A DNA stretch of 64,000 bases from Somniosus microcephalus (Eukaryota), in NCBI GenBank assembly GCA_052327205.1, contig CM126210.1, positions 15,190,001-15,254,000 of the forward strand, written 5' to 3'. Shown piece by piece: positions 48,164 to 51,046 of this stretch (positions are counted from its first letter, which is position 1; every line of letters begins with the position of its first letter). Position numbers and translations under genes: made by a program. The notes below the pieces were generated by a model. It ran no database searches. It saw nothing but the letters and a program-made list of their open reading frames with translations, and was not told the DNA's origin.

Positions 48164-51046
48164 TTATCTTCTGCTTCTTCTTTTTCTTTTCTGCCTTTTT
48201 GAAACTCTCGGAGCTCCTTTCTCGGCTGCCAGCTGTAGCGCCACCAACTCTCTATGTTCCTTAGACCTTAAGTGCTTCATCCGGATTTCAGCACTTTGAG
48301 AGTTTTCATCACAAGCTGGGCAGACCACATCCTCGTAATATTCAGTGTCACTCAACAGGTCATGGTAATATTCAGGTTCGTCCTGAGTTAGGCCAGCGAG
48401 AGAGACTTCTTCTTCCTCCTCACCCGTCTGGACGTTAGCTGACGGTGGTTCCTTCCCTAAACATCTTTCTTGAAAAGCCTTCTTCATGCATTCACATTCA
48501 TCCCGCTCTTCCTGGGTTATCTGCCATTCCTTCACGACGGACCTCATTTGTGAGTTCAATACCTTCCTTTCCATCGGTAATTGCGTTATCAGGCTATTTA
48601 ACCCTTCTACTGAAATAACGGTTTCCACATTCTTCTGTTCACCTTGACGTGATTCAATGTACTTTTGGCATCCTTGTAAAATTTGTGTTGCCACCTCAGC
48701 TATCTCCGTGACTTTTGAGAGCTCCGAACTCGTTCCCCCTGAAGATTGAAGCTCGTGTTCAGATTGTTCCCCTTGCCGAGTCTTGTCCTTCAGCATATGA
48801 AGGAGTTGGCCGACCGTTAACTCTTCCCTGGGAACACGGTGGATCAGAGTCTTCTCCATTTCATCCACCTCTTTCTCCAATACTTCCACCTTACGTTCCT
48901 CTTGAACTTTGGCTTTCAGCGCTCGGCAAAGTTGCGCCCTGATGCTCTCTAGTTCATGTTCAGGGACCATTCTTACAGTGTCCTGTTCTTCCACTGAAAG
49001 GATTCCCAGTTGAATCTGTTCTTCAAGTTGTTGAACCTCGGTCATTGCCGCCTCATACTTCTCTTGGGTGTCCTTCAATGTTTTTATAAGTTCTTGGACA
49101 TCCTGTCTTTCATGCTCTGCCATGATTTTCACCTCTAATTGCTCATCTATGGATGGAGCTTCTATCGATGAGTCTGTCTTGGCCTTGAGTTCATCAAGAA
49201 TTTCCTGCAGCCTTTGGACTTCTTGCTCATGTTCAACCTTTAGTTGTTCATATGCTTCTACTGAAACTAGCTTTTCGGAGGCTGCCGAGTTAACCCCCTC
49301 CAGAATTGTAGCCTGGGCCTGTTCATACTGTTCTTTCAACTTCTCACACTCTGCTTGTAAGGAGTCGTAGAGAAGAATTGGAATAAAATCCTGGCTCCCT
49401 GAAGATTCCTCTTCCTTTGGTTCATTCTGTAAATATTCTAGTTCCTGAACAGCATCAGGGGAATGTGATTGGTATTTGACCACGATGGCTCTATGGTCGC
49501 TCTCTGCTTGAGCTAGCTGTCTCTGTAGTCTTTCCAGGTTCCCCCATTCGGTGTCCCAGAACTTTTCCATATTTTTCATCTCCTGTACGAGACGGTCACT
49601 CAACTGTTCTAATTGTTGTCGTACTTTGACATAAGTTTGCGTCCGAGCTTGGTGTTCTTCCGTCATGGATGAATCCTTTGCTTGAACAGGCTCAGAATTC
49701 TCTGTCAACCTGGAGTTCTGCTCTGCAGCTTTATTCTTCTTGGTACCATAAGTCCTTCTGCATGTCTTCGCTTTCTTTCCCATCGTCGGCAAGTCCCTTT
49801 TAGCCTTGTCTTCCATTTCCGACTTGGTCTTATCATCATCCATTTCAGAATCTGAGCTAATAGCTTGCACCGAGTCCTCCCTCATTATGGCTTTTAGGTA
49901 ATGCCATTCCATGTCTATTTTCTTAATCCACTCCCGTCCTAGAAGTGGTGGTCCTCCCTCAGATAATACGTACAAGTTCATTCTTGGGTGTTCTTTACCC
50001 CTATCTCTCACCTTGACTCTTATTTTCCCCACGGGGTATACGTTATGCCCCATGTATGTCTGTAATACGAACTTGGTATTTCTTAAAGGTATGTGAGAGA
50101 ATAGCCGGTGGTAGTCCCTTCGGTTGATGACTGATAGAGCTGATCCAGTGTCCAGCTCCATTCTTACTTGGACTCCAGCTATTTTTAGTATGACCCAGAT
50201 GGCCTGTAGATCAGTTTCTTTACCCACATTGTGGATTCTCAGACTACCCAGCTCCTGGTTGTTTGGGTCTGAGTCTGAATTCTGTTCGTCTGAACTCTTC
50301 TCAGCCACCTTGTGTACCTTGTTGTACTTTTCTGGTGGTGGCTTCCTTTGATTATTGGTCTTTTTCCCGGACCGGCATACCTTCGCGATGTGACCCAGTT
50401 TGCCACACTTCCTACACTCTTGGTTCTTAAACCAGCATTGATTCTGGTCATGCGTTGTCTTCCCACAACGGTAGCATTTTGTTGTGCTTGAAGTAATTTG
50501 GTCCACCCCGAGTGCCGCCGCCTTTAGTTGCATTTCCGCCGTTCCTTTCGCTGCGGCTTCGTGCGATGCAGCTATAAGGACAGCCCTGTCCAGTGTGAGA
50601 TCGTTCTCTTCCAGTAGTCGCTTCTGCGTCCCTTCTTTGGACAATCCGCATACGAACTTGTCCCGCAGCGCTTCTGTCAGATTCCCTCCGAACTGGCAGT
50701 ATTTCGCTAGCCTACGCAGTTCGACCAAGTATTCCGCATTGCTTTCGTCTTTCTTCTGCGTTCTTGCGTAGAATTTGAATCGTTCAGCCAGCATCAGCGG
50801 TGTGGGGTTCAAGTGGTCCTTCAGCACAGCCACAATCTCTTCGAAGGTCTGATCCGCTGGTTTATTTGGTGCTATTAGATGCTTCAAGAGCCCGTATGTT
50901 TTTGCCCCCATCGAGTTTAGCAATGTTATCGCCTTGTCGTCTTCCTCTATTTTGTTGGCTTCGCAATAGATCTCTATGCGTTCCACGTACGTGGCCCAGT
51001 CTTCTATTTCAGAATTAAAGTCGTTAATATTCCCTCGCTTAGGCAT
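48164..51046 (-). CDS. 960-aa Gag - 2x CCHC zinc knuckle - aspartic protease - coiled coil (ANKRD24/RAI14-like) - C2H2 zinc finger (DNAJC21-like) - basic tail fusion protein
   Basis: Gag motifs W..YVER, AERFKFYARTQKKDES, LRRLAKYCQFG and LRDKFVCGL. Knuckles CYRCGKTTHDQNQC and CRKCGKLGHIAKVC. Protease ELDTGS (D299) ... LLGREW. E/Q/K-rich heptad region ~aa 470-860. CPAC...HLRSKEH from C909. Ends KRQKRKRRSRR. Host-protein similarities are from memory. Confidence 0.9.
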   Translation of the reverse strand: MPKRGNINDFNSEIEDWATYVERIEIYCEANKIEEDDKAITLLNSMGAKTYGLLKHLIAPNKPADQTFEEIVAVLKDHLNPTPLMLAERFKFYARTQKKDESNAEYLVELRRLAKYCQFGGNLTEALRDKFVCGLSKEGTQKRLLEENDLTLDRAVLIAASHEAAAKGTAEMQLKAAALGVDQITSSTTKCYRCGKTTHDQNQCWFKNQECRKCGKLGHIAKVCRSGKKTNNQRKPPPEKYNKVHKVAEKSSDEQNSDSDPNNQELGSLRIHNVGKETDLQAIWVILKIAGVQVRMELDTGSALSVINRRDYHRLFSHIPLRNTKFVLQTYMGHNVYPVGKIRVKVRDRGKEHPRMNLYVLSEGGPPLLGREWIKKIDMEWHYLKAIMREDSVQAISSDSEMDDDKTKSEMEDKAKRDLPTMGKKAKTCRRTYGTKKNKAAEQNSRLTENSEPVQAKDSSMTEEHQARTQTYVKVRQQLEQLSDRLVQEMKNMEKFWDTEWGNLERLQRQLAQAESDHRAIVVKYQSHSPDAVQELEYLQNEPKEEESSGSQDFIPILLYDSLQAECEKLKEQYEQAQATILEGVNSAASEKLVSVEAYEQLKVEHEQEVQRLQEILDELKAKTDSSIEAPSIDEQLEVKIMAEHERQDVQELIKTLKDTQEKYEAAMTEVQQLEEQIQLGILSVEEQDTVRMVPEHELESIRAQLCRALKAKVQEERKVEVLEKEVDEMEKTLIHRVPREELTVGQLLHMLKDKTRQGEQSEHELQSSGGTSSELSKVTEIAEVATQILQGCQKYIESRQGEQKNVETVISVEGLNSLITQLPMERKVLNSQMRSVVKEWQITQEERDECECMKKAFQERCLGKEPPSANVQTGEEEEEVSLAGLTQDEPEYYHDLLSDTEYYEDVVCPACDENSQSAEIRMKHLRSKEHRELVALQLAAEKGAPRVSKRQKRKRRSRR

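Follow-up and report, generated by a model that had tools for sequence, protein, structure and literature searches.

Within a 64,000-nt stretch of the Somniosus microcephalus genome (contig CM126210.1, positions 15,190,001 to 15,254,000 of the forward strand; hereafter the window), we analysed a minus-strand open reading frame (ORF) of 960 aa (51046-48164, stop codon 48166-48164) that lies in a long terminal repeat (LTR) retrotransposon of 5.0 kb, whose LTRs are 99% identical and flanked by a 5-bp target-site duplication. The ORF fuses retroelement domains to pieces of four host genes in the order Gag-protease-STK10-ANKRD24-OPTN-DNAJC21, and two of these pieces appear to have been copied from circular RNA (circRNA). 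The STK10 donor, the back-splice junctions and the many young copies of the element go beyond a preliminary description of the window, which had dealt with a zinc finger, a basic tail and a coiled coil in the ORF. Copies labelled L0nn are stretches fetched from the same genome, of which C1, C8, C13 and so on are contigs. The parts of the element are listed here in window coordinates.

52231-52486, minus strand: 5′ LTR, ~256 bp, TG...CA, found as a 258-nt direct repeat at 99%, with the target-site duplication AGGAC on both flanks
52210-52229, minus strand: primer-binding-site-like sequence (TGGCGACGAG...), adjoining the 5′ LTR, named by position and sequence
51110-51740, minus strand: 5′ untranslated region with tandem repeats of 82 nt and ~115 nt
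50366-51046, minus strand: gag, aa 1-227, with two CCHC knuckles at aa 191-227
49928-50167, minus strand: aspartic protease (DTGS), aa 294-373, Pfam Asp_protease_2 E 8e-4, below cut-off
49517-49879, minus strand: STK10-derived cargo, host aa ~401-483 joined to 621-670, the remnant of the founder's putative circSTK10 lap
49445-49516, minus strand: last part of ANKRD24 exon A followed, after splicing, by penultimate exon C of 66 nt; 85% to the host across 67 nt (L026:8665-8731)
49444-49445, minus strand: ANKRD24 back-splice junction, linking exon C, at its donor, to the acceptor of the 1512-nt exon that lies upstream
48821-49444, minus strand: ANKRD24 coiled coil, aa 535-742, from the first ~640 nt of the large exon
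48413-48826, minus strand: optineurin-derived segment, aa 741-878, four spliced host exons
48182-48406, minus strand: DNAJC21-derived segment, comprising an acidic linker, the C2H2 finger (48322-48254) and the start of the basic tail
48164-48208 including the stop, minus strand: basic tail, aa 947-960 (48208-48167), RVSKRQKRK (DNAJC21) followed by RRSRR (junction in a shifted frame)
47760-48163, minus strand: 3′ untranslated region, with decayed out-of-frame STK10 (host aa ~321-388) and an integrase C-terminal tail
47742-47755, minus strand: polypurine tract
47486-47741, minus strand: 3′ LTR

The paired LTRs with TG...CA ends, the target-site duplication, the primer-binding-site-like sequence and the polypurine tract, together with a Gag and protease related to those of a pol-bearing element and the absence of a reverse transcriptase (RT), RNase H and integrase core, characterize a non-autonomous LTR retrotransposon. 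In gag, Pfam matched zf-CCHC and Retrotrans_gag, both below cut-off, and it gave no match to RT, RNase H or integrase in the 960-aa ORF; gag DNA is 70% identical to the pol-bearing relative via the founder type of the family. That relative (L027:3517-5493, minus strand; RT and RNase H in broken frames) is ~70% alike to the element in gag-protease and lies just downstream of host ANKRD24. From its domain order, we take the element to be of the gypsy type. The 3′ untranslated region, within which the remaining STK10 and the integrase tail decay, aligns with the coding tail of copy L036 at 66% in 527 columns.

The preliminary description had noticed a C-x2-C-x12-H-x5-H finger and a basic tail at the end of the ORF and had attributed both to DNAJC21. 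The finger is indeed present at aa 909-931 (48322-48254, minus strand) and the tail at aa 947-960, and all four zinc ligands are retained amid divergence, as had been noted. The Pfam and protein searches that had been suggested for this region were unproductive when run with the window itself: the finger scored 16.5 bits against zf-C2H2_jaz (PF12171), below the cut-off of 22.6, and a word-indexed protein search with aa 860-960 returned no match at E<=0.01. The best match to PDB was not significant (E 0.36), all matches in Atlas were below 0.9, and DNAJC21 ranked first for the window's own finger only among the proteins compared directly. The finger is identifiable because less-diverged copies elsewhere in this genome connect it with the host gene. 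When the genome was searched with the zf-C2H2_jaz family, 150 of 150 scored places reached 36.6-42.1 bits, above the cut-off (21,271 candidates). Among 24 of these places that were fetched, picked for long or varied frames, 23 are relatives of the element that share its gag-protease or its cargo and have a better finger; the remaining one is a host zinc-finger gene. When the finger region of the relative L032 was searched against 1.84 billion representatives, one protein of 38 repeats came on top. Among the best matches after it are DNAJC21 proteins from sharks, rays, coelacanth and macaque, as well as proteins with a J-domain, a zuotin-homology domain and a jaz finger; each of the seven clusters looked up bears the name DNAJC21.

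The DNA of the host gene agrees with this assignment. The DNAJC21 exon encoding the second half of the finger is 98.4% identical over 126 nt in L073 and L032, 92% in L036, 84% in L026 and 78.7% over 47 nt in the window, and in L073, L032, L036 and L026 the next host exon, ~2.3 kb away, joins directly with the intron gone. We therefore read the finger and tail as a real captured piece of spliced DNAJC21 mRNA, and the attribution of the finger to DNAJC21 stands. One point speaks against this reading: the half of the finger with the two Cys was matched at the protein level only, its host exon lying outside the stretches fetched, with an assembly gap upstream. The attribution of the tail held in part. 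The host tail reads RVSKKQKRKK, and in the window only RVSKRQKRK derives from it; the last five residues, RRSRR, are the DNAJC21/STK10 junction read in a shifted frame, and an origin of the whole tail from DNAJC21 was rejected. Pfam found neither the J-domain nor the zuotin-homology domain in the 960-aa ORF.

Host DNAJC21 itself is split on C1 between 2.65-2.68 Mb and 4.77-4.80 Mb, ~2.1 Mb apart in GC-rich, gapped sequence, the two halves standing in the wrong order. The last exon occurs on the small contig C1211 as well, and the split is probably a scaffolding error. No further exons were found in the 80 kb downstream of host exon 4, a stretch that holds N-gaps. A genome search with PF21884 yielded two exons that are not DNAJC21 and presumably belong to DNAJC2.

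The coiled coil had been described as at least as ANKRD24-like as RAI14-like, with serial independent captures as the consequence of an ANKRD24 origin, and this proved correct. Residues 533-742 matched one protein per cartilaginous fish at 55-72%, alligator ANKRD24 being the sole other among 13 matches, and reached 72% aa identity to an 'ankycorbin' of Heptranchias. The DNA is 88.7% identical to host ANKRD24 on C13, and a tree pairs the coiled coil of the element with host ANKRD24 (97/98). Paralogues on C2 and C27, which we take to be RAI14 and UACA, match short stretches only (33% over 60 aa for C2), and the tree and the DNA match rule out RAI14 as the coiled-coil donor. The segment at ~48350-48820, left unassigned with the suggestion of a third donor, has indeed a further donor, optineurin: residues 741-878 match shark OPTN at 47% aa identity (E 2e-27) and correspond, with the introns removed, to exons of the host gene on C17 (75-90%), and in the OPTN-type copy L034 six host OPTN exons were matched at 86-99%. 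Residues 390-510 derive from STK10. The four donors are unlinked (STK10 on C8, DNAJC21 on C1, OPTN on C17, ANKRD24 on C13), and we regard the host origin of the captured pieces as close to certain.

An older ANKRD24-carrying copy (L026:2388-7278; C13, ~62,867,070-62,871,960) lies antisense within an ANKRD24 intron, between two exons of the captured ANKRD24 circle; it has a target-site duplication of its own, and its two LTRs agree at 98.4%. Since its ANKRD24 piece has already diverged from the host (dS 0.07), this copy seems to have been inserted after the capture, and its position may be chance.

The window element belongs to a large and young family. When the 3′ half was used to search the 6.4-Gb genome, all 40 scored copies were >=99% identical (2352 first-look candidates, which are not copy numbers). 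Of 19 further copies fetched, 11 preserve the full 960-aa frame; among the 12 fetched whole, 11 have paired LTRs that agree at 98-100%, and the twelfth showed one LTR. At least six cargo types exist in the family, with four donors in the window copy. The founder type (L052-L057) carries circSTK10 only, and the L073 type has an internal deletion and DNAJC21. Further cargo on the DNAJC21 type is a myosin-tail coiled coil in 6 of 23 copies and optineurin in 16 of 23, and types truncated after the basic tail occur with circANKRD24 (L026 and the window) or without it (the L028 type, 40/40 scored copies at 99%). A gag-protease tree nests the window and L026 within the OPTN-type copies (100/100); in this tree the founder is not at the base and L028 forms a long branch. 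Because the founder is not resolved as basal, we infer the capture order from what the cassettes contain and how close they are to the host genes, namely STK10, then DNAJC21, then myosin-tail or OPTN, then ANKRD24, with recombination likely. DNAJC21, which had been labelled a second capture beside the coiled coil, is placed by subfamily content after STK10 and before OPTN and ANKRD24, and the label has to be dropped in that sense.

Several copies carry further cassettes. In L074 (4188-4841), L032, L033, L038, L072 and L079, a 218-aa coiled coil of myosin-tail type (Pfam Myosin_tail_1, E 9e-16) is inserted into the STK10 piece; Atlas and Pfam name no donor, and the cassette presumably resembles cingulin-like 1, whose host gene was not located. 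A family copy nested in L032 (6005-8101, minus strand) holds at least two Ig I-set domains, titin- or myosin-binding protein C-like, and a cassette of 156 aa that contains a CxxC motif and matches nothing in Pfam. L028 and L115-L134 form a young subfamily whose finger diverged independently and whose gag-protease sits on a long branch, which suggests that L028-type cargo moved onto a different gag. The optineurin FVEI motif, which we take to be the LC3-interacting region, is kept in the OPTN-type copies L034-L037, L039, L040, L042, L043, L075-L078 and L080-L083 and lost in the window lineage.

Selection was assessed by pairwise dN/dS between single copies (NG86, kappa 3). Gag (0.06-0.24) and protease (0.13-0.22) are under purifying selection. 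Values for the cargo were 0.35-0.53 for ANKRD24 (0.50 having a confidence interval (CI) of 0.27-0.87), 0.66-0.96 for OPTN, 0.22-1.67 for STK10, a short piece with wide intervals, and 0.65 (0.47-0.89) for the pooled cargo of the window versus L026; DNAJC21 gave 0.88-1.07 against OPTN- and myosin-type copies and 0.45 (CI 0.17-1.31) against L026. Neutral evolution would be predicted to yield ~11 stops among 210 cargo substitutions; the frame of the window is open, and the only in-frame stop seen was one in L026, which also has frameshifts. Within the finger, 0 of 4 ligands changed versus 17 of 19 other positions in the window or L116 lineage (Fisher p 0.0017, simulation 0.002 jointly). Every subfamily examined has an Arg/Lys-rich C-terminal tail, from different frames, and in two amplified subfamilies the stop follows the basic tail directly.

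These patterns may point to an end-module role of the finger and basic tail, a tentative reading that we doubt slightly more than we believe. Several observations weigh against it. OPTN as a whole and DNAJC21 against the OPTN- and myosin-type copies are near neutral, and the ligand test draws on two lineages sharing 7 changes, the window alone giving p=0.055. Conserved Phe and Met core positions are lost from the window finger, the Phe in the L116 lineage as well, the net charge dropped from +4 to 0 in the window (and to -3 in L116), and the young copy L011 lacks one finger Cys. Because the Phe/Met core is lost and the net charge is down to 0, the window finger is possibly unfolded.

The same origin is compatible with all cargo, the finger included, being passive filler, with selection acting on RNA length and on the avoidance of early stops (e.g., escape from nonsense-mediated decay). 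The OPTN and DNAJC21 dN/dS near 1 and the degenerate finger core agree with such filler, as do the free exchange, deletion and truncation of cargo among subfamilies and element spans that stay at ~3.5-5.0 kb across copies. The unchanged ligands, the ANKRD24 and pooled cargo dN/dS below 1 and the two amplified subfamilies that end just past the basic tail are harder to accommodate, and we consider filler throughout a possible but somewhat improbable account.

That the STK10 and ANKRD24 pieces were copied from circles is suggested by their exon order. A genome search with shark STK10 scored 47 places carrying host aa 375-709, with 45 second STK10 matches (aa 290 onward) directly after them. In 6 of 6 founder copies fetched, the cargo lies between the protease and an integrase-like C-terminal tail and follows the doubled host circle, which has five exons, 1245 nt and 415 codons, over 1259 nt, ungapped, at 98.7-99.0%. 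The cassette is thus exactly one lap plus a 14-nt overlap, and no flanking exon is included. The back-splice links the fifth exon, at its donor, to the first, at its acceptor, and the two sites share no more than AG; among the 19,015 in-frame back-jumps showing this degree of homology, 7 are such exon-edge pairs. This junction was lost from the window lineage through the OPTN insertion. The ANKRD24 circle would span 1743 nt (581 codons), and exon-edge pairs are 3 of its 4,279 possible in-frame back-jumps. For both genes, the reversed exon junction falls at exact splice sites, as in circRNA-derived retrocopies. The element also shows the marks of LTR-mediated retrocopies: spliced RNA replaces the internal ORF, both LTRs are kept, and there is microsimilarity at the switch points (the 14-nt overlap for STK10, 8-9 nt for OPTN, 8 nt at the DNAJC21 exit), which is not readable on the pol side of the founding switch, whose exact parent was not found. 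A GC-AG intron lies within the circularised STK10 exons, after exon c (C8, ~167,193,680).

A permuted junction taken alone is compatible with a circle but also with a linear RNA that was trans-spliced or carries repeated exons. The permuted STK10 and ANKRD24 pieces could then stem from linear RNAs by template switching between molecules or exon repetition, or from genomic tandem duplication, and other routes to such junctions are mentioned in the text of Dong et al. 2016 (PMC4897178). The ANKRD24 junction, which shares 4 nt (CAG|G) and is compatible in sequence with a switch between linear mRNAs, speaks for this explanation and against a circle. Arguing the other way, each of the two junctions coincides to the nucleotide with a splice donor and a splice acceptor, the STK10 cassette comprises a single full circle and 14 nt more but no flanking exon, and no duplicated exons were found in 80 kb of STK10 or ~80 kb of ANKRD24, the inserted element aside. 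We thus regard a linear source as unlikely, and circular RNA as very probably the template of both pieces, judging from the junction sequences.

Taken as a whole, the observations are best explained, with good probability, by a pol-less element that acquired its cargo by template switching and bears a selected end module. The element would make its own Gag and protease and borrow RT and integrase from relatives such as L027. At its founding, one circSTK10 lap would have replaced the pol region when RT, inside the particle, switched templates at short microhomologies, entering and leaving the circle at the same 14-nt overlap. Descendants would have gained co-packaged host RNA in frame, namely DNAJC21 mRNA and then the myosin-tail coiled coil or optineurin mRNA, and the window lineage would have added a second circular RNA from ANKRD24. 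We propose that the need for an open frame explains the survival of in-frame products. Translation would yield a Gag-protease-cargo polyprotein, from which the protease may cut the cargo where RT normally sits. Most of the cargo would be loosely constrained in-frame coiled-coil filler, and the finger and basic tail would be under site-specific selection as a zinc-folded end module replacing the lost integrase C-terminus, the tail perhaps serving nuclear import or nucleic-acid binding and the 60S ribosome-binding role being given up. A bolder version, which we hold to be somewhat less likely than not, is that the lineage was founded by circRNA reverse transcription and became a modular protein-shuffling vector that repeatedly exchanges in-frame host domains, of circular and linear origin, behind its Gag-protease, and that its finger and tail, as a selected and functional stand-in for the integrase C-terminus, help it to outcompete its helper.

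The family is transcribed. In RNA run X7, tied to the genome by the shared species label only, first mates lie overwhelmingly on the plus strand (745 vs 0.8 at 49444-49630), which corresponds to sense RNA under the usual stranded protocol; at 48135-48321 the sense value was 475 vs 28, and no splice joints occur over the element. Two facts weaken this evidence for transcription: run X8 has reads in both directions without sense bias, and the reads stem from many copies. Reads across back-splice junctions are indistinguishable from element reads in these runs. A pile of read ends at 52242, considered as a transcription start, was dropped, as LTR variants diverge there. Contig runs labelled as two other organisms covered 30/30 and 29/30 bins, and no gag-cargo fusion occurred among the matches listed in two protein searches (13/13; 120 of 878).

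Transcription and the FVEI motif kept by OPTN-type copies would also suit a fusion kept to help or disarm the host, through a dominant-negative OPTN/DNAJC21 decoy or small RNAs against the donors; the window lineage lacks FVEI, the J-domain and kinase were never captured, and the cargo dN/dS is near 1, so that we find this decidedly improbable. The preliminary proposal that RAI14 and DNAJC21 were captured together from one region or a read-through RNA, which was based on human synteny, deserves almost no credence: ANKRD24 is on C13 and DNAJC21 on C1, the OPTN piece separates them in the ORF, DNAJC21 occurs without ANKRD24 in 23 of 23 finger-selected family copies, and single-locus capture is refuted because the four donors lie on four contigs.

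Elsewhere in the window, a near-complete LINE with its RT split by stops occupies 18661-23262 (minus strand), with a 90-nt tandem repeat of 3.5 copies at 22823-23133. We take it to be of CR1 type, with an esterase-like ORF1, an endonuclease and RT.

The return of circRNA to a genome is an event kept here at nucleotide precision, twice, in an LTR element, and it points to template switching in retrotransposon particles as a route from circRNA to genome. The young subfamily ladder, in which host domains were gained, swapped and trimmed in frame, forms a natural time series of exon shuffling. In practical terms, many near-identical partial copies of STK10, OPTN, DNAJC21 and ANKRD24 sit inside elements of this genome. 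They can inflate counts of gene duplications, give rise to reads that look like circRNA junctions, and distort estimates of expression.

Capture by LTR elements is already known, and so are pseudogenes derived from circRNA. An LTR family founded by a full circRNA lap, with a second circRNA capture and in-frame swaps, is unreported in the literature searched, supplements and subscription papers aside. DNAJC21/Jjj1, which acts in 60S maturation, has as described in PMC10119586 a first C2H2 finger (zf-C2H2_jaz) followed by a Lys-rich stretch, as does the captured piece, whereas the window lacks the J-domain, the zuotin-homology domain and the second finger and has lost the hydrophobic core and positive charge. 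Maize Bs1, as presented in a review (PMC13317346), is an LTR element with three host-gene pieces in a chimeric expressed ORF; it differs in being from a plant and in its donors, which are linear as described there, from the four donors, circular templates and recent amplification found here. Closer are the animal LTR retrocopies of Tan et al. 2016 (PMC5131818), in which spliced host RNA, joined at microsimilarities, takes the place of the internal ORF, and which by that account can have several donors per element, in sense and often in frame, and can undergo further retroposition. Those were few and low-copy, and the word 'circular' is absent from the main text; here there are two back-spliced templates, cargo fused to a selected Gag-protease, and amplified subfamilies with swapped cargo. 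The circRNA-derived pseudogenes of Dong et al. 2016 (PMC4897178), with 33 circRFWD2 copies in mouse, share the non-colinear back-splice junction in the genome, the multiple copies and the association with LTR sequence. The text of that paper terms them pseudogenes and their mechanism 'mysterious', whereas the present family displays the carrier element, the entry and exit points, a full single lap and an open fused ORF, with such a capture occurring twice.

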